This document shows, in pieces, positions 5,907 to 13,920 of a DNA stretch of 18,945 nt (position 1 is the first letter of the stretch; every line of letters starts with the position of its first letter). This stretch comes from Candidatus Jordarchaeia archaeon (GTDB taxonomy: Archaea > Asgardarchaeota > Jordiarchaeia > Jordiarchaeales > Jordiarchaeaceae): contig JAHQXB010000105.1 in NCBI GenBank assembly GCA_029856435.1, forward strand, positions 1 through 18,945, written 5' to 3'. The notes beneath the pieces are model-generated. The model saw only the letters and a program-made list of their open reading frames with translations, searched no databases and was not told the origin of the DNA. A program made the position numbers and the translations under genes.

Positions 5907-6353
5907 ATGACCAAAGAAAGCATTCTGGAATTATTGAACCATGCTCTTGAGTTGGAGCATGCTGCTTATGTCCAATATTTAAGCCACGCTGAAATTGTTG
6001 ATGGGATTAACGCGGAGCCTATAATTGCAAGGCTTAAGGAAATCGCTGGCGATGAGCTGAAACATCAGGAAAAGTTTAGAACACTAATTGGGCTACTTGG
6101 CGGTGTGCCCAGCATGGGTATAGCAGCTACCTATCCCGCTAAGGATGTGAAGGGAATCCTTGAGCAGAACCTGAAGAACGAGAAAGAAGCAGTGGATACA
6201 TATAGGGGAATCATTGAAGCCCTCAAGAAGGAAAAGGGGAAAGGATACTACGACCACTTGCTTGAACATGAAGTGAGACACATCCTGATGGAAGAGCAAG
6301 AACACATAACAGAACTCGAACTCTTGCTGGGAATCCAGGGAAGCAGTTATTAG
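5907..6353 (+). CDS. Ferritin-like (bacterioferritin-like) di-iron protein
   Basis: Four-helix ferritin pattern with the full ferroxidase set: ELE, DELKH, NEKEAVDTY, EEQEH; 148 aa. Confidence 0.85.
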   Translation: MTKESILELLNHALELEHAAYVQYLSHAEIVDGINAEPIIARLKEIAGDELKHQEKFRTLIGLLGGVPSMGIAATYPAKDVKGILEQNLKNEKEAVDTYRGIIEALKKEKGKGYYDHLLEHEVRHILMEEQEHITELELLLGIQGSSY

Positions 6354-6376
6354 AACAAAAATAGCAGTTCATTCCC

Positions 6377-6390
6377 TTTCTTATTTTTTT
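6377..6390 (+). terminator. Oligo-T archaeal terminator after the ferritin-like gene
   Basis: tttcttaTTTTTTT about 25-35 nt after the stop. Confidence 0.45.
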
Positions 6391-6522
6391 GGAATTTTGA
6401 AAATCCCATTTTTCCGAATAGCCGACACAAATTGCATCCTTTAAGCATACCTTCTGAACAAAAACTCCTTAACTCATTAAAAACGGCTGAAAAAGTTTAT
6501 CTCCAGATTGGTGAGGTGAAGA

Positions 6523-6573
6523 TGTCTGAAACACATGTATACACCAAAAATGTGGAGAAGGGGGAAGCTTAAA
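6523..6573 (+). CDS. 16-aa small ORF (MSETHVYTKNVEKGEA), peptide or 5' stub of a lost gene
   Basis: Preceded by aaaaagTTTATc (6491-6502) and GGTGAGGTGA (6511-6520). Confidence 0.3.
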
Positions 6574-6578
6574 AAAAC
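6572..6578 (-). terminator. T7 tract after the acyl-CoA ligase stop
   Basis: A7 on + equals T7 on -, about 10 nt after the stop at 6588. Confidence 0.4.
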
Positions 6579-6587
6579 TGTTTCTAG

Positions 6588-8213
6588 CTACTTTAATCCC
6601 ATCTTTTCGCGTTCTCTCTTTATCAGGTCTCTTCTGAGTATTTTTCCGGTGATGACTCGGGGTATGCCTTCTACGAATTCTACCTCTCTAATTTTTTTGT
6701 AAGCCGCTATTCTCTCAGCCACCCAGTCGATTATTTCTTGTTCGGTTATTTTTCCTTTGTATTCTGGTTTAGGTACTATGAAGGCTTTGGGAATTTCTCC
6801 AAGTGCTGGGTCTGGTGCCGGCTTTGGTATTACGGCGCAGTCCAGTACTTTGGGGTGTTTGAAGAGTAAGTCTTCAAGTTCTGCGGGTGCCACGGCATAG
6901 CCCTTATACTTTATCATCTCCTTCATTCTGTCAACGAGGTGCTCGTAACCCTCCTCGTCTATGTATGCGACGTCTCCCGTTCGGAACCATTTTAAACCTG
7001 TTTTGGGGTCAGTCCAGAATGCTTGCTCCGTGGCTTCCGGCCTCCTCCAATATCCCTTGAAAACCTGTGGCCCCCTAATCACTATTTCACCCATCTGACC
7101 CGGTTCAGTTAGCTCCCTGTCGGTCAAGACATCCAATATCTTATGGTATGTGTCTGGCATAAGTATTCCTTGGGTTTCCAGTCTATTTCTGTGGAGGGGA
7201 TTTGCTGCCACTGGAGCAGCCTCAGAGAGCCCCCATCCCTGCCCCACTAGTAAGTCTTCGGTTGCCTGGCACTTTTCCTTTGCCAGTTTTTCGAATTTTC
7301 TGGCGAGCTCTGTGGGGACTGGCGCAGCTCCATTAGCCATCACGTGGAAGGAACGCCAATTATAACCTTTGACTTCTGGGTTCTCAAGGTGTCTCACTAT
7401 TAGGTTGAGGAGGGGTGGTACACAGAGGCTGTAGGTCACCTGATACTTCTCCACCAGTTCGCACCATTCTGAAGGATTGAAGCCGGACATTACAACCTGA
7501 GCCCCACCGTTCCAAATGGTGAGGTTCATGGATAATGCTAGGCCAAAGATGTGGTAGAGAGGGATGAGTATTATGAAAACGTCTGTTTCGTTAAAGTCAG
7601 TGTGGCTGGACCATTGGATAGTGTTGGCAACCAGATTATAGTGTGTGAGCATCGATCCTTTTGGTAGTCCTGTGGTTCCACTTGTGTACAGGAGGGCGGC
7701 AACATCCTCTTTGGGATTGTAATTATATTTGGGTGGGTTTGGCGGGTACTTTTCCAAGAGTTCACTGAAGGAATGGGTGTCTGGCTGCTTCTGTCCAATA
7801 ACTATTATGTTTTTTATCCCTGTTTTTCCTTTAACATTTTTAAGGATGGGGTACATGCCTTCGTGGATGATTATGGTTTCTACCTCGGCGTCTTTAATCT
7901 CGTATTCCACTTCGGATTCTCGGAACATGGGGTTCATCGGGACGAAGACTCCTCCCGCCTTGGATATTCCAAAGCAGGCAATCTCCCACTCGATACAGTT
8001 GGGAGAATAAATTATAACCCTGTCACCCTTCCTAACCCCGATGTCTGCTAGGGCGGTGGCAATTTTGCCCACAGATTCACCGAACTCTTTGTAAGTCATT
8101 TTTTTGGGGTGTAGAAAAGCATACCTGTCTGGGAACCGGCCCACGGTATCATCTAATATTCCAAAAAAGGGGATTTCGGGATAATATAAATGGCCTCCCT
8201 TATAAACCTTCAT
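6588..8213 (-). CDS. Class I adenylate-forming acyl-CoA ligase (long-chain fatty acid / 4-coumarate-CoA ligase-like)
   Basis: A3 LLYTSGTTGLPKGSMLTH, A5 GWGLSEAAP, GEIVIRGPQVFKGYW, A7 FRTGD, A8 DRMKEMIKYKG, A10 GKILRR. Confidence 0.9.
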   Translation of the reverse strand: MKVYKGGHLYYPEIPFFGILDDTVGRFPDRYAFLHPKKMTYKEFGESVGKIATALADIGVRKGDRVIIYSPNCIEWEIACFGISKAGGVFVPMNPMFRESEVEYEIKDAEVETIIIHEGMYPILKNVKGKTGIKNIIVIGQKQPDTHSFSELLEKYPPNPPKYNYNPKEDVAALLYTSGTTGLPKGSMLTHYNLVANTIQWSSHTDFNETDVFIILIPLYHIFGLALSMNLTIWNGGAQVVMSGFNPSEWCELVEKYQVTYSLCVPPLLNLIVRHLENPEVKGYNWRSFHVMANGAAPVPTELARKFEKLAKEKCQATEDLLVGQGWGLSEAAPVAANPLHRNRLETQGILMPDTYHKILDVLTDRELTEPGQMGEIVIRGPQVFKGYWRRPEATEQAFWTDPKTGLKWFRTGDVAYIDEEGYEHLVDRMKEMIKYKGYAVAPAELEDLLFKHPKVLDCAVIPKPAPDPALGEIPKAFIVPKPEYKGKITEQEIIDWVAERIAAYKKIREVEFVEGIPRVITGKILRRDLIKREREKMGLK

Positions 8214-8243
8214 CTTTAAACCTCACATTCTAATCGACTTGAC

Positions 8244-8259
8244 TTGAAGTAATCTTCAA
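8244..8259. promoter_or_regulatory. Inverted repeat TTGAAG-N4-CTTCAA, candidate operator
   Basis: Perfect 6-bp arms about 30 bp upstream of the CoA ligase start. Confidence 0.3.
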
Positions 8260-8449
8260 AATACTTAAATTTTATCACCCTTTGTGTCCCCACCGGGTGC
8301 AGATTGCGATTTCTGCCCTCCTCAATTTTACGGTTCCAGTATGAAGAGACATTTTAAAGTCTCACCATGAGGGGAATTTAAAGGAGGCAAGTCCTTATGT
8401 GATTAGAGATTTCACCATAAATTGTGGAAAAGATTAAAGTACCTCGGTA

Positions 8450-8467
8450 TTGAAAACATTTTTTCAA
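8450..8467. promoter_or_regulatory. Inverted repeat TTGAAAA-N4-TTTTCAA, candidate operator
   Basis: Perfect 7-bp arms just upstream of the GGAGGTGA SD of 8487. Confidence 0.3.
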
Positions 8468-8486
8468 CCCTTGGAGGTGATATTTC

Positions 8487-9929
8487 ATGGGTTTAAGAAC
8501 TGTAAAGCAGTATAAGGAAGGTTTAAGGGACGGTCGACAGGTGTGGATTCTTGGAGAAAAAGTGAGTGATGTCACCACCCACCCCATGCTAAAAGTGGGC
8601 GTGGAAACCGCCGCCCTTGACTATGAAATGGCTGAGGATCCCAGGTACCATGAGCTAGCTGTGGCGCAGCACCCAGAAACAGGGGAGCCCATAAGCAGAC
8701 ACTACTATCTTCCCAAAAACGCGGAAGACCTACTGAAAAGACATGAGCTGATAGTTACTGCAACCCGGCTGGGTGATGGAGTGATACCCTTCACCAAGGA
8801 TGTGGCTGGAGACTGTCTAAACGCCATTTGGGTAACCTCCCAAGTTATGGGAAAGGAGGAATACATTGAGAGAATCAGGGAATACTATGAACATGTTAGA
8901 AAAAGGGATTTGAGCATAGCCTGCGGAATGACTGACGTTAAGGGGGATAGAAGTCTACATCCTTCCTCCCCAGAACAGTCGCACCCCGATTTCTATGTTC
9001 GAGTAGTAGACAAAAATGATGAAGGGATAATAGTGAGAGGGGCGAAAATGCATATAACAGCCTCGGCGTACTCTGATGAGATTCTTGTTCTGCCCTGTAG
9101 GGCTATGAGGGAGGGAGACAGGGACTACGCTGTGTGCTTTGCAGTTCCCGCAAACGCTAAAGGGCTGAAACACATATGTCACCCCCTCAGGTACCAGCAA
9201 AGCCCCTTGGAGTTTCCAGTAGATGTTCCCATAAGAATGCACACCGAGTCTCTACTAGTGTTTGACGATGTTTTTATACCTTGGGAGAGGGTTTTCCTGT
9301 GCGGTGAATGGCAGTATGCGGGAACCATTGCCTACAATTTCTCGTTCTTCCACAGGCACACCGCATCCTGCTACCGAATCGCCCTAACTGAGCTACAATT
9401 GGGAATGGCTCAGGCCATTGCTGAATACAATGGAATCGACCGCATTTCCCACGTCCGGGAAAAAATAACCAACATGATAATCTATTTGGAAATGCTAAAA
9501 TCTCTGGCCAAGGCCTCTTGCAGCGACCCCGTAATTTATGGCGGAATAGCGGTGCCCAATCCGGTAATCAGCAACATATCAAAATACCACTTTGCTGAAA
9601 ACTACCACAACTTCGTGAAGTGGGTGCAAGATCTGTGCGGCGGAATCTTGGTCACAGCCCCAACCTATCTGGACTACCAAAACCCAGAATTGAGAGGCTA
9701 CATAGACAAATACCTAGGGGGCAAAAAGGGAATACCCACGGAACACAGGCTGAGAATGCTCCAACTCATAAGAATCTGGATGGCTTCCGATATCGGCGGA
9801 GGAATAGAAGTCCTTGCACTACACGGAGAAGGCTCACTCCAAGCCCAAAGAATGATAATCTACGGAGAATACCAGAACCAGCTCCAGGAATACAAGGAAA
9901 GAGCCAAAAGAGTAGCCGGAATAAAGTAA
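8487..9929 (+). CDS. 4-hydroxybutyryl-CoA dehydratase (AbfD) / 4-hydroxyphenylacetate 3-hydroxylase (HpaB) family flavoprotein, atypical
   Basis: QYKEGLRDGRQVWILGEKV.DV..HP, GMTDVKGDRS (FAD-binding), VRGAKMHITAS, LVFDDVFIPWERVFLCGE, HGEGSLQAQR. Perfect SD. The AbfD CxxxC is absent, so no gene symbol is assigned. Confidence 0.85.
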   Translation: MGLRTVKQYKEGLRDGRQVWILGEKVSDVTTHPMLKVGVETAALDYEMAEDPRYHELAVAQHPETGEPISRHYYLPKNAEDLLKRHELIVTATRLGDGVIPFTKDVAGDCLNAIWVTSQVMGKEEYIERIREYYEHVRKRDLSIACGMTDVKGDRSLHPSSPEQSHPDFYVRVVDKNDEGIIVRGAKMHITASAYSDEILVLPCRAMREGDRDYAVCFAVPANAKGLKHICHPLRYQQSPLEFPVDVPIRMHTESLLVFDDVFIPWERVFLCGEWQYAGTIAYNFSFFHRHTASCYRIALTELQLGMAQAIAEYNGIDRISHVREKITNMIIYLEMLKSLAKASCSDPVIYGGIAVPNPVISNISKYHFAENYHNFVKWVQDLCGGILVTAPTYLDYQNPELRGYIDKYLGGKKGIPTEHRLRMLQLIRIWMASDIGGGIEVLALHGEGSLQAQRMIIYGEYQNQLQEYKERAKRVAGIK

Positions 9930-9941
9930 AAATGATAAAAA

Positions 9942-10748
9942 ATGAAACAAAAAAGTCTTAAACGGGAAAAATCCAGCCCCCTCGTAATAGTTGTAAGGGG
10001 CGACGACCCGGAGAGAATGGTGACAGCTGGCTTAGGGGAATTGAACCTCGGAATCCCCCAGAGAAAAATCGTAATAAAACCTAACCTCATTGCAAATAAG
10101 CCCTACCCCACAACCACCTCTCCAAAAACTGTGGAAGCCATAATCAAATACCTCAAAAAGTACAACAGAGAAATAATCATTGCTGAGGGAGCCGGCTGGG
10201 CGGACACAAATCAAGCCTACCGAGACCGGGGCTACCATCAACTGGCCGAAAAGTATGGGGTAAAACTGGTAGACCTAAACAAGGACCAGTATGAGAAGGT
10301 AAGGAATCCCCAAGCCTTGGTGTTAAAAGAACACGAGTTACCCCTAACATTAAAGGACTGCTACTTGGTTTCGGCTCCCGTATTAAAAGTGCACGGCGAG
10401 GCCGGCGTCACACTCTCAGTCAAAAACATGCTGGGGGCAACCATTGGCGGAAACAAGGGAAGGTTCCACGGCAAGGGAATACACCAAAGCATAGTGGACA
10501 TAAACCTCTACAAGGCTCCAGACCTAGCCATAATAGATGGAATAGAGGGAAACATAAGAGGAGAACTGGGAGGAGAAACCAAAAAATTCAATGTAATGAT
10601 ATTCTCCCAAGATCCCGTAGCAGCCGACGCAGTAGGAGCAAAAATTCTAGGAGTAGACCCACTCTCCGTGAAACATCTAAAACTAGCACAGGAAAAAGGG
10701 CTAGGCACAGCCGACCCAAGAAAAATAGAGGTTAGAGAACTAAAATAA
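9942..10748 (+). CDS. DUF362 domain protein
   Basis: IVIKPNL, IIIAEG, APVLKVH, VTLSVKNMLG, AIIDG, DPVAADAVGA..LG pattern. Starts 12 nt after the previous stop, so probably co-transcribed. Confidence 0.8.
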   Translation: MKQKSLKREKSSPLVIVVRGDDPERMVTAGLGELNLGIPQRKIVIKPNLIANKPYPTTTSPKTVEAIIKYLKKYNREIIIAEGAGWADTNQAYRDRGYHQLAEKYGVKLVDLNKDQYEKVRNPQALVLKEHELPLTLKDCYLVSAPVLKVHGEAGVTLSVKNMLGATIGGNKGRFHGKGIHQSIVDINLYKAPDLAIIDGIEGNIRGELGGETKKFNVMIFSQDPVAADAVGAKILGVDPLSVKHLKLAQEKGLGTADPRKIEVRELK

Positions 10749-10786
10749 GACACCCTTCTCAAAAGCAAATTTCCCCAAACTCCGCC

Positions 10787-10792
10787 TTTTTT
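10787..10792 (+). terminator. Oligo-T terminator after DUF362
   Basis: gccTTTTTT about 40 nt after the stop. Confidence 0.35.
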
Positions 10793-11041
10793 AATGGCCT
10801 AGTAATAGTGTAAAGTGCGTATTCCCAAATACCTTACTATCCTAAAAAGGAAATTATTACTAACATTTAGGGTTCCCCGCATTTTCACCAAATGAACGGC
10901 TTTGGTTCAACTCCCCTTTTTAATCTTTTCAGCTCATTTATTTATTTCTGAATTGACTCTTTGCTAATAGGACGAATGTATGTTTTACGTCACATTTGAA
11001 TCATGAAAAAGCGCGTATCCCTTGATTTTTTTCAATAATTT

Positions 11042-11641
11042 ATGGTGACTCCCGAAAGAGCAGTGGTTAAAAAAAATTGAAGATTAAAGGGATACAAGAT
11101 CTTTGTGCCCTCTGAAACTCGGGAGAGACATGGTTTTGGATCCCAGGGACGAAATCGGGTGAATAGACATACGAAGAAATTTTTATTAGACCATTGAAGT
11201 AAAACGCCAAGCTCACAGACATTATTGTTGCAAAATACGACACCGAAGAGGAAATTGACTCAGAGCACGATGAGGTACCCTCCGGTGAAATTTAAAAATC
11301 CTTTCCCAGATACCAAGGTATTTATACGGCAGCTTTCCCTAAAGAAAACATCACAAAGAAGTCAAAGAAACCATTAACGCCACTTAAGAAGAAATCTTGA
11401 AAACCTAGACTAGTGGTAGCCTTTTGTCATCATTCAGTGTTCCCCATAATCAGAAAAGATGTAAAGGGTATTAGGTCTCTGGAAGAACCATATAGAGATT
11501 GTAAAAAGGACACCGGAGAAGAGAATCCTTGGGGTAGGGAGGTTCTTCACTCGCCTCCACAAAATCAAAGGGAAGATAAAGCCTAGAGAAGAGGTGCTGA
11601 TTACCGCTCTAACGTGGGATTTAAAAATTTTTCAGAAATAA
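11042..11641 (+). pseudogene. Decayed CDS fragments, possibly a PD-(D/E)xK nuclease
   Basis: Protein-like segments in shifting frames with internal stops: MVTPERAVVKKN*RLKGYKIFV; RDEIG*IDIRRNFY*TIEVK; DIIVAKYDTEEEID; RYQGIYTAAFPKE; and a start-less 58-codon frame at 11465-11641. Confidence 0.3.
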
Positions 11642-11775
11642 TGCAATTGGGGGTGCTACGATTAAATATTTTAGTAGGTTTTGCTCACACCTATCTAAGA
11701 GAGCCCGAAAAAAGAGAGAATGGTGATTGTACATCCGTGGTGAAAGAGTGCTGAAGGGAACAGAGGTAATTGAGG

Positions 11776-13050
11776 ATGGTGAAAGATCAGGAGACAACCA
11801 TGTATATGGCTGAGCCCATTATGGATTGGATTCTCAATGGTATACCTGAGCCTGTAAATGTTAAACTTTTTGATGATGTTGGCTCTATTTATGAGGCTCA
11901 GCTTGCTAAGATGGAGTTATCCCGTTGGTGGAGGGATCTAGAGGCTTTTAGGAGGAGGTGTGCTTATTTTGAGGAGGTAAACGGTGAAAAAACTTTTCAC
12001 TACTATATTTCAAATATTAGGGGGAAAGGGCAAATTGGCAGAACAAACCAGTACTTAACACACTGGTTCTATCCATATAAAGCGAAATTTCATCCCCAAA
12101 TGGTAAAGGCTCTTATCAACTGGATGGGGCTTAGGGGGGAAGATAGGCTTCTTGATCCCTTTGTTGGTAGTGGGACGACGCTTATTGAAGCTAAGACTAT
12201 AGGCATAGATAGTTGGGGCGTGGATATTAATCCAATATGTACTTTGATGTCAAGAGTAAAATGTGAACTGCTGGACCTCACAACCGAAATGATAAAAGAA
12301 GTTCCTAGGGAGAAAGTATTCCACTATTTTAACAGAAAAATGAGAGGAGTGCTTGGGAAGACTTCAAACCTCGAGTTATACGTTAAGAACCTAGAGAATG
12401 AACCTAAATTAATATCTGACGATAGGGTTTACTGCTTTTACCAATTATGCTATTTATACGCTTTATCTGATTACACTTACATTAAGAAGCCTTTGTGGGA
12501 GGGTTTCAACAACAACTTAGACGCCATATTGAAGACTGTAGAAAAATTCCAAGATTTGAAGCAAAAGTTGGATTTTAAGCTCGGAAATGTTAAGGTATTA
12601 GAGGGAGACGCAAGAAAATTAAGTGAAATGTTTCCTAGAGAGTACTTCGCTGGAATCATTACCTCACCACCATACAGTATAGCTGTAGACTACATTAAAA
12701 ACGACCTACATGCCTTATCATATTTGAACATTAACGCAGATACTCTAGTAAAAGATATGGTCGGCCTAAGAGGAAAAGGCGACGAAAGAATAGATAACTA
12801 CTACAAAGACATGAGGAATTCCTTTAAAGAAATGAACAAAGTTCTGCAACCCGACAGGTACTGCGTAACCATAATAGGAGACGTCACCTATAAGGAAAAG
12901 AAGCTCCCTATCCACCAGAAGTACATAGAATTTGCCCAAGAGGCTGGTTTCATTCTAGACAAAATAATAAGAAGACCCATCCTTGGCGGTTACGCTCGAC
13001 TGAGATACGAATATGTACTAATCTTTAAAAAAATTAGCGATGCAGATTAA
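11776..13050 (+). CDS. N4-cytosine DNA methyltransferase, alpha class (M.MjaII-like)
   Basis: THWFYPYKAKFHPQMV, motif I DPFVGSGTT, then the TRD, then motif IV ITSPPY (SPPY indicates m4C). Start ATG 11776; the track starts at TTG 11770. Confidence 0.88.
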   Translation: MVKDQETTMYMAEPIMDWILNGIPEPVNVKLFDDVGSIYEAQLAKMELSRWWRDLEAFRRRCAYFEEVNGEKTFHYYISNIRGKGQIGRTNQYLTHWFYPYKAKFHPQMVKALINWMGLRGEDRLLDPFVGSGTTLIEAKTIGIDSWGVDINPICTLMSRVKCELLDLTTEMIKEVPREKVFHYFNRKMRGVLGKTSNLELYVKNLENEPKLISDDRVYCFYQLCYLYALSDYTYIKKPLWEGFNNNLDAILKTVEKFQDLKQKLDFKLGNVKVLEGDARKLSEMFPREYFAGIITSPPYSIAVDYIKNDLHALSYLNINADTLVKDMVGLRGKGDERIDNYYKDMRNSFKEMNKVLQPDRYCVTIIGDVTYKEKKLPIHQKYIEFAQEAGFILDKIIRRPILGGYARLRYEYVLIFKKISDAD

Positions 13051-13084: not shown

Positions 13085-13834
13085 CTAACAAGCTCCCTCC
13101 TTAAAAATAGCATTTTTCGCCTCCTCAGCGATTTCCAACAATTCTTCATAAGTTCCAGCACCACCTATCTTATTCCACATTTCCTCCCCTATCAAGACCT
13201 CCCTATTCAAATCCATGATTTGCATAGTGAACCGATGATTATATTTTTCTCTATAAATGAAAGGATTATAGGGAAAAGCAAGATAGGCTTCAGGCTTCTT
13301 GCCCTCAAATATTGCGCGAAAATAAAGCATCTTTTTCTTAGATTCCGCACAAATATCCAAGTTTGGTCTGGGGCTTTTAATTTCAAGGAAAAGCGGGCCC
13401 GGCTTAAAATCACTAATAAATAAATCAGCAATGATGGAAAGCTCTATAGGTTTCCCGCCGGCAACAGAGAAAATCTCTCTCATTTCACTGTCATAACTGG
13501 GGCTCCTTCTACCAGAACGCAACTCATCTACAATTCGATCCATTACACCCACTCTCTCCGCCGACACTCTACCAGAAATCGGATAATTACGATGCACACC
13601 CTTATAATTATCCCTAGCAATTATTACTGCCATCTTCGGATAAAGCGTCATACCCATCCTTGTTACCAGACTTCTCTGTACCTTGAACGACAACAAAGCT
13701 TCGTCAGGAAAAAATATGGAGTGGAAGGGAAAAGCCCTCTTAAGCTCATCAACAGTGAATTCAACCTTACCCAGACTTGCCTCTGCAAACCCTATGATAG
13801 CCTGTTTAACCTGACTACGAGTTTCCTCCTTCAT
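13085..13834 (-). CDS. Type II restriction endonuclease, TdeIII/MjaII family
   Basis: SLVTRMG, ADLF...FLEIKSPRPNLD (PD-(D/E)xK core), AFPYNPF, IGEEMWNKIGG. Convergent with the m4C methyltransferase. Start ATG 13834 or TTG 13837. Confidence 0.82.
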   Translation of the reverse strand: MKEETRSQVKQAIIGFAEASLGKVEFTVDELKRAFPFHSIFFPDEALLSFKVQRSLVTRMGMTLYPKMAVIIARDNYKGVHRNYPISGRVSAERVGVMDRIVDELRSGRRSPSYDSEMREIFSVAGGKPIELSIIADLFISDFKPGPLFLEIKSPRPNLDICAESKKKMLYFRAIFEGKKPEAYLAFPYNPFIYREKYNHRFTMQIMDLNREVLIGEEMWNKIGGAGTYEELLEIAEEAKNAIFKEGAC

Positions 13835-13920
13835 CAAACACCACCCTCAAGACTCAAATTTAACTCTAAAGGATTAACCCACCACACAGTACATCCTCTG
13901 ATCGGCCGCACAGTGTCTGC

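Follow-up and report, generated by a model that had tools for sequence, protein, structure and literature searches.

A cluster-free flavoprotein of the AbfD/HpaB fold from a Candidatus Jordarchaeia archaeon belongs to a large, unstudied third branch of its family

The DNA described here, hereafter the window, is a stretch of 18,945 nucleotides covering positions 1-18,945 of contig JAHQXB010000105.1 from a Candidatus Jordarchaeia archaeon (GCA_029856435.1). On its forward strand, positions 8487-9929 hold the gene for a 480-amino-acid (aa) flavoprotein with the fold shared by AbfD, the 4-hydroxybutyryl-CoA dehydratase (4HBD), and the HpaB oxygenases. From its translation, Pfam domains and structure matches this protein is assigned to a cluster-free class marked by the motifs HR-x5-Y and H[GA]EGS. 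The frame is the only long one at its place in the map of open reading frames (ORFs) and runs for 480 codons without a stop. Divergently from it, on the reverse strand, lies a gene for an AMP-forming fatty-acyl-CoA ligase of the FadD type (6588-8213; Pfam AMP-binding, 7e-88), and the ORF map leaves an intergenic region of 273 bp between the two (8214-8486). The best solved relative of the ligase is FadD-1 of A. fulgidus (3g7s; E 1.5e-133). At the other end, 12 nt 3' of the flavoprotein gene and on the forward strand, is the gene for a DUF362 protein of 268 aa with one Cys (9942-10748; Pfam DUF362, 1.2e-45).

HpaB_N (E 4.6e-86) and HpaB_C (E 3.5e-56) both match the flavoprotein over their full length. 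No match above cut-off was obtained with the Pfam models of acyl-CoA dehydrogenases (ACADs) Acyl-CoA_dh_N, _M and _1; of the ACAD models only Acyl-CoA_dh_M matches at all, scoring 25.7 bits where 33.3 are required. The solved relatives found by phmmer are AbfD of C. aminobutyricum (1u8v, E 3e-74), 4HBD of N. maritimus (6vjr, E 2e-72) and HpaB of T. thermophilus (2yyg, E 1e-54). An AlphaFold2 model of the product has a mean predicted local distance difference test (pLDDT) value of 91.9. When this model was used in Foldseek, AbfD came out on top (1u8v, TM 0.89; 6vjr, 0.88), followed by HpaB enzymes (0.83-0.89), with the ACADs third (E 1e-10, TM 0.41-0.49). The gene is thus intact and, as described below, strongly conserved, and its product has the AbfD/HpaB (acyl-CoA dehydrogenase-like) fold.

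The cluster ligands of 4HBD are C99, C103, C299, and H292, while T190, E257, Y296, and E455 are further residues required for dehydration (bioRxiv 10.1101/2020.02.05.935528). In the phmmer alignment to 1u8v only one of the ligands, H292, is kept, as H289. The ligand motif C99-x3-C103 is replaced by P101-F-T-K-D105-V-A-G-D109-C (8787-8816), with P101 and D105 at the two Cys positions, and C299 corresponds to Y296 in the segment H289-R290-H-T-A-S-C295-Y296 (9351-9374). The His-Arg pair of this segment is common with AbfD, while the Tyr is class-specific. C295 is found one position before the C299 site, which matches the spacing in the N. maritimus enzyme (6vjr, phmmer alignment). Of the catalytic residues, T190 is kept as T191 (9057-9059) and E257 as E254 (9246-9248), while AbfD Y296 is replaced by A293 and E455 by L443. 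The position of T191 is Thr or Ser family-wide and, in the MAFFT L-INS-i alignment described below, also that of the Thr in the ACAD motif I-T-N-G; in AbfD and the ACADs this residue contacts the flavin N5. Most of the class has Glu or Asp at the position of E254. L443 lies in a loop of variable length (residues 434-447, 9786-9827), delimited by the alignment to 1u8v and by pLDDT values below 50. This loop leads up to E448 in the motif H446-G-E448-G-S450 (9822-9836; E448 codon 9828-9830), where AbfD has A460. All these features are on the forward strand. We take A460G to be among the active-site variants of AbfD and the backbone NH of Ala460 to touch the thioester, and neither point is used as evidence here.

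The triad R100/Y104/H142 of T. thermophilus HpaB corresponds to F102/V106/C146 (phmmer, 2yyg). By these residue maps three of the four AbfD ligands and two of the four catalytic residues are absent, together with the HpaB triad. The 480-aa product cannot bind the [4Fe-4S] cluster of AbfD, and it is without the phenol-binding triad of HpaB. FAD is probably bound as in AbfD, judging from the fold and from the family-wide residues G180, G185, K187, R155, T191, and G449. A preliminary description of the gene had placed the motifs PFTKDVAGDC, HRHTASC, and HGEGS exactly where the translation has them (residues 101-110, 289-295, and 446-450), and it rightly reported that CxxxC is absent, that the E455 and A460 sites are changed and that R-x3-Y is missing. 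Its statement that the His/Cys segment survives as HRHTASC has to be withdrawn, as the Cys is confined to the Asgard subclade, the usual sequence among the relatives being HRHTAAS or HRHTGCS.

A protein search of 5.8 billion sequences returned more than 120 full-length relatives with 56-92% identity. Their hosts are Asgard archaea (Freyarchaeota, Promethearchaeota, Lokiarchaeota), Dehalococcoidia, Desulfobacteraceae, and Actinobacteria, and those that are named carry the label '4-hydroxybutyryl-CoA dehydratase' or 'HpaB N-terminal domain protein'. P101, D105, D109, H289, R290, T292, Y296, E448, G449, and S450 are invariant in an alignment of 40 close relatives (57-92% identity), which is closer agreement than chance would give. 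C204, C272, and C345 are invariant or nearly so in the same 40-sequence subclade, and are not conserved class-wide. A HMMER search of 1.84 billion cluster representatives gave 346 clusters at E <=1e-30, and a family alignment was made from 103 full-length representatives, five paralogues of the source genome and 20 close relatives. It contains an Fe-S group with CxxxC and HR..C, an HpaB-like group with R, Y/F, and H in the columns of the Arg/Tyr/His triad, a cluster-free group with HR-x5-Y...H[GA]EGS, and some smaller groups.

Class-wide frequencies were taken from the 23 representatives of the cluster-free group. E448 is present in all 23, while the same column holds Gly (64%) or Ala in the Fe-S group. 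Position 296 is Tyr in 91% of the cluster-free class, Cys in 100% of the Fe-S class and Arg in 88% of the HpaB class. H289 (96%), R290 (100%), and S450 (96%) are also conserved. The window protein has all the signature residues, H289-R290, Y296, and H446-x-E448-G-S450, which are found class-wide at 91-100%, and no Cys at the AbfD ligand sites. Fifteen residues are common to the cluster-free and the Fe-S groups and not to the oxygenases: D109, D150, K152, G153, H189, P203, E274, H289, R290, N315, N363, K366, D382, T390, and H446. The PFx[KH]D motif, including D105, is limited to the subclade of the window gene. These alignments show that H-R-x5-Y and H-[GA]-E-G-S define a distinct cluster-free class.

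The conservation pattern also bears on the suggestion in the preliminary description that the protein could be a dehydratase with an alternative iron-sulfur cluster ligated by Cys, Asp, and His. D105, C110, H289, and C295 are all near the old site in the window protein, and the subclade-conserved C204, C272, and C345 might be added as potential ligands. However, C110 is found in 3/121 relatives, C295 in the Asgard branch only and D105 in the subclade only. No Cys is conserved across the 23 representatives of the class, and in 91% of it the C299 position is filled by Y296. H289 is the sole candidate ligand conserved class-wide and an alternative cluster is therefore very improbable; an Fe-S site made up of D105, C110, H289, and C295 was rejected since these residues are not conserved. 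The broader proposal, that of a third functional class, stands as far as the alignments and trees place the protein with neither canonical AbfD nor the HpaB oxygenases.

Three trees were calculated: a FastTree tree of 128 rows, a quick IQ-TREE tree of 75 rows and an ACAD-rooted tree of 88 rows using posterior mean site frequencies (PMSF). In all three the Fe-S proteins are split from the remainder at 100% support, with the window protein on the non-Fe-S side, and a clade with the same support unites the HpaB oxygenases. Between these two lie the H[GA]EGS proteins, in several lineages; they are best described as a grade, a clade not being proven. The HpaB clade branches from within or beside this grade. 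The subclade with PFx[KH]D that contains the window gene is supported at 98-99% by the Shimodaira-Hasegawa-like approximate likelihood ratio test (SH-aLRT), and its Asgard members form a 100% clade beside the bacterial ones. PFx[KH]D together with H[GA]EGS thus marks a supported clade within the wider cluster-free class, a question the preliminary description had left to phylogeny, and the protein falls outside both the Fe-S and the HpaB clades. When the tree is rooted on the ACADs, its root lies within the Fe-S group, on an outgroup branch 2.4 substitutions per site in length. This position agrees with loss of the cluster, but the root is unreliable, and because the outgroup branch is very long no conclusion is drawn on loss or gain of the cluster.

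The enzyme could in principle be a two-component monooxygenase of the HpaB type, in which O2 and free reduced flavin would serve for the hydroxylation of a substrate that is aromatic or bound as a thioester. Both Pfam domains are named after HpaB, the oxygenase clade arises within or beside the cluster-free grade, and at one related locus (L006) a Flavin_Reduct gene is found about 2 kb upstream. Against this, the Arg100/Tyr104/His142 triad has become Phe/Val/Cys, and the NCBIfam HpaB equivalogs score far below their cut-offs (TIGR02309, 218.5 bits against 480.2; TIGR02310, 141.2 against 885.2). The class-conserved residues are those in common with AbfD and not those of HpaB. The hosts are Asgard archaea, Dehalococcoidia, Syntrophaceae, and sulfate reducers, and no flavin reductase gene is found in the window, although the whole genome was not searched for one. 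An oxygenase of this kind is hence an improbable explanation.

The position of E448 was compared with that of the ACAD catalytic Glu. A profile of the class was compared with 38 ACADs from the source genome and the related loci using hhalign in local mode, as global mode gave a meaningless 13-column match. The two are colinear over 306 columns (probability 94.5%, E 7e-8), and G447-E448-G449-S450 falls on the ACAD motif Y-E-G-T. A hhalign run with narrower profiles gave the same register, and an independent MAFFT L-INS-i alignment has E448 in the column of the Y-E-G-T Glu and T191 on the I-T-N-G Thr. Residues 1-382 of the ACAD used as a reference (L012), a butyryl-/short-chain ACAD orthologue, align to residues 1-382 of M. 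elsdenii butyryl-CoA dehydrogenase (1buc). Since these two proteins align position for position, Glu367 of L012 equals residue 367 of 1buc, which we take to be the catalytic base. In the AlphaFold2 model E448 ends helix 438-448 directly ahead of the next helix, an ACAD-like placement. At the level of sequence, then, E448 is at the position of the ACAD catalytic base, as the preliminary description had proposed for the Glu of HGEGS.

A pattern scan of species-representative genomes, one genome per species, found relatives encoded at at least 589 loci, the nearest being in Ca. Freyarchaeota (98%) and Ca. Jordarchaeia (97%). The named hosts of the 80 best of these loci belong to anaerobe lineages throughout. 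ORFs around these 80 loci were clustered, and the commonest neighbors encode a short-chain dehydrogenase/reductase (SDR; 34/80), a CrtI-like FAD oxidoreductase (29/80), a CoA ligase from the cluster of the window ligase (27/80) and an ACAD (24/80). Further recurrent genes are those for ABC ATPases (18/80), 3-hydroxyacyl-CoA dehydrogenase and a sigma54 activator (16/80 each), a protein like nitronate monooxygenase (NMO) or FabK and a thiolase (14/80 each), DUF35 and a MaoC hydratase (12/80 each), and DUF362 (10/80). The association with a CoA ligase noted in the preliminary description is hence a recurrent one, and the divergent arrangement of ligase and flavoprotein genes is found also at L018 and L019.

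In bacteria the typical operon has a divergent sigma54 activator gene followed by genes for the CrtI-like protein, the cluster-free enzyme, and the SDR. It continues with NMO, thiolase, DUF35, MaoC, ACAD, and 3-hydroxyacyl-CoA dehydrogenase genes, or with a Liv-type ABC transporter and a ligase. This operon is found in Desulfobacterota, Chloroflexota, and Firmicutes (L035, L039-L045, L047-L051, L053-L059, L062-L068, L079-L082). The relatives thus usually sit inside β-oxidation-type operons, and this context provides strong circumstantial evidence that the substrate is an acyl-CoA.

Based on the residue maps and the gene context, the protein is proposed to be a cluster-free FAD enzyme acting on an acyl-CoA, with Glu448 as the base that takes the α-proton, and dehydrogenating or reducing a special acyl-CoA in the manner of the ACADs; we would give this proposal about an even chance of being right. 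FAD would be bound in the AbfD-like manner and the substrate would be an acyl-CoA thioester, here probably one that the divergent FadD-type ligase makes from a fatty-acid-like acid. The α-proton of the acyl-CoA would be abstracted by Glu448, and Thr191 would touch the flavin N5. Since Glu448 sits at the position of the ACAD base, the chemistry is proposed to be ACAD-like and not AbfD-like, that is a two-electron reaction in which the flavin works together with a Glu base. In net terms this would most likely be the α,β-dehydrogenation of one particular acyl-CoA, or else enoyl-CoA reduction in the opposite direction. His289, Arg290, and the class-specific Tyr296 would fill the former cluster pocket and contact the substrate near C3-C4.

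Several observations weigh against this proposal. Many of the related operons already encode ordinary ACADs, which implies that the enzyme does something other than plain dehydrogenation. No gene for an electron-transfer flavoprotein or another electron acceptor is adjacent in the window. Residues 434-447, immediately N-terminal of E448, are the sole low-confidence stretch of the AlphaFold2 model (pLDDT below 50). Literature searches found no characterized member of the class. Finally, the His-Arg pair of AbfD is kept and a new invariant Tyr is placed in the old cluster pocket, and this hints at chemistry at C4 and is a better fit to an isomerase or eliminase.

Such an enzyme would be redox-neutral, with Glu448 acting at C2 and His289 and Tyr296 near C4. 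As an isomerase it would catalyze a 1,3-proton shift like the Δ3-Δ2 enoyl-CoA isomerization that is a side activity of AbfD. As a γ-eliminase it would use the flavin to assist the elimination of a C4 substituent, acid-base catalysis by Tyr and His replacing the Lewis-acid iron of AbfD. The invariant Tyr is indeed at the C299 site, where the C4-OH of the AbfD substrate would sit, and the ordinary ACADs in many of the same operons count for this explanation as well. There is also a precedent in BbuA, the γ-butyrobetainyl-CoA trimethylamine (TMA)-lyase of Emergencia timonensis, a cluster-free FAD enzyme of the ACAD superfamily that carries out a redox-neutral C4 elimination (PMC8364193). However, genes for 4-hydroxybutyrate or 4-aminobutyrate metabolism (AbfT-type transferase, semialdehyde reductase) do not recur among the neighbors of the 80 loci, E455 and Y296, which are catalytic in AbfD, are missing, and the source genome keeps a fully canonical AbfD elsewhere. 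A redox-neutral reaction is the main alternative to the ACAD-type one, and is less likely than it. A bolder version, which we regard as unlikely, is that the whole H[GA]EGS class performs AbfD-type chemistry with flavin only and without iron, the γ-elimination or 1,3-proton shift being carried out by Glu448 at C2 and Tyr296/His289 at C4 without an oxygen-labile cluster, and that it links the radical dehydratases in evolution to the O2-dependent HpaB oxygenases.

The source genome has four more genes of the AbfD/HpaB family (L007, L008, L009, and L011, on contigs C144, C111, C76, and C79). L007 is the canonical AbfD mentioned above, with CFQRC, HRQSYGGC, and ESMHGAGS. The other three keep the Fe-S ligands and have HGGGS, while E455 is gone, and from their sequences they are variant radical-enzyme paralogues. 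A search for the cluster-free enzyme itself gave matches of at least 76% identity in 6/6 same-genus genomes and in 0/35 other Asgard relatives. This patchy distribution among the Asgard archaea is compatible with lateral acquisition; the base composition gives no sign of a recent transfer. On a Ca. Freyarchaeota chromosome (CP147778.1, L001) the gene is found in two tandem copies (6225-7667 and 8001-9431), followed by DUF362, NIPSNAP, and SDR genes.

Two neighbors were considered as functional partners and rejected. The DUF362 gene adjoins the flavoprotein gene in 6/6 same-genus genomes, while DUF362 orthologues of other Asgard families have no flavoprotein gene upstream. The adjacency is thus found in one genus only, a different, divergent arrangement being present in some Dehalococcoidia, and since the pairing is so restricted DUF362 is regarded as a local companion only. 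The DUF362 protein of the window has no solved relative by sequence and no ferredoxin domain. DUF362 is a multi-copy family both in the source genome, with five matches (the window and contigs C154, C64, C23, and C43), and in most of the Asgard relatives searched (30/41 genomes). The CrtI-like flavoenzyme is the commonest immediate upstream neighbor in bacteria, but its best match in the source genome has 25% identity, and as that genome is without a close homologue it cannot be an obligate partner. This CrtI/amine-oxidase-like FAD protein of the bacterial operon is itself uncharacterized and has no close solved relative.

DegV, a fatty-acid-binding protein, is a recurrent neighbor in Dehalococcoidia. 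A second recurrent context is found there (L022, L024, L025, L026, L074), in which a DegV and/or a PEBP-family gene precedes the enzyme gene, and at L022, L024, L026, and L074 divergent DUF362 and DUF1893 genes lie farther upstream.

Downstream of the DUF362 gene in the window about 1 kb (10749-11769) has no ORF above 60 aa; Rfam and tRNA scans found nothing there or elsewhere in the window. It is followed by the gene for an N6_N4_Mtase DNA methyltransferase (11770-13050, forward strand) and, convergent with it, that for a type II restriction endonuclease of the TdeIII family (13085-13837, reverse strand). The two are likely to be a restriction-modification pair, and nowhere in the window is the GC content lower (0.39-0.41).

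The cluster-free class is a third branch of its enzyme family, large, unstudied and routinely mis-annotated. Its members are commonly labelled '4-hydroxybutyryl-CoA dehydratase' or '4-hydroxyphenylacetate 3-hydroxylase', and both labels are wrong for the class. The former is used as a marker for 4-hydroxybutyrate carbon-fixation cycles, while the latter implies aerobic degradation of aromatics, and the mislabelling thus carries over into the metabolism reconstructed for Asgard archaea, Dehalococcoidia and syntrophic or sulfate-reducing Desulfobacterota. No curated family model for the class was found, and the ESM Atlas gave automatic names only. New in this study are the class-wide signature, the position in the trees, the conserved bacterial operon, and the narrowness of the DUF362 link. 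Because the class is large and none of its members has been characterized, hundreds of genomes would gain an annotation from a single biochemical study, and the relationship of an ACAD-type base, an AbfD-type pocket, and the HpaB oxygenases would become clear as well.

Of the known systems AbfD is the most similar, being the best match in both sequence and structure. The two proteins have the same length and three-domain fold, T190, E257, and H292 with the following Arg are kept in the window protein, and both occur in anaerobes, with acyl-CoA genes around them. The fifteen class-conserved residues held in common with the Fe-S class, and absent from the HpaB oxygenases, point the same way. In contrast to AbfD, the window protein has P, D, and Y for C99, C103, and C299, L and A for E455 and Y296, and an invariant Glu for Ala460, and it is placed outside the Fe-S clade by the 100% split. 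With the ACADs (medium-chain, short-chain and butyryl-CoA dehydrogenases) it shares a homologous fold and the residues Glu448 and Thr191 in the Y-E-G-T and I-T-N-G columns. It is, however, about 100 residues longer than these enzymes and only 13-17% identical to them (TM 0.41-0.49), and they have no counterpart of its AbfD-type His-Arg...Tyr pocket. The HpaB-type monooxygenases (2YYG, E. coli HpaB, TftD, HadA, SgcC) have the same Pfam domains and fold (TM 0.83-0.89), are also cluster-free, and their clade is the other neighbor of the cluster-free grade in the trees. They differ in their Arg/Tyr/His triad and in the NCBIfam models, for which the window protein scores below the cut-offs, while the cluster-free class is set apart by its anaerobic hosts and its β-oxidation gene context. 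BbuA, which is approximately 10% identical to 4HBD (PMC8364193), offers a functional analogy only: a cluster-free FAD enzyme from an anaerobe with AbfD-like C4 chemistry on a CoA thioester. It is an ACAD homologue of ordinary length outside the HpaB/AbfD branch, and it is likened to the window protein by description and not by sequence.

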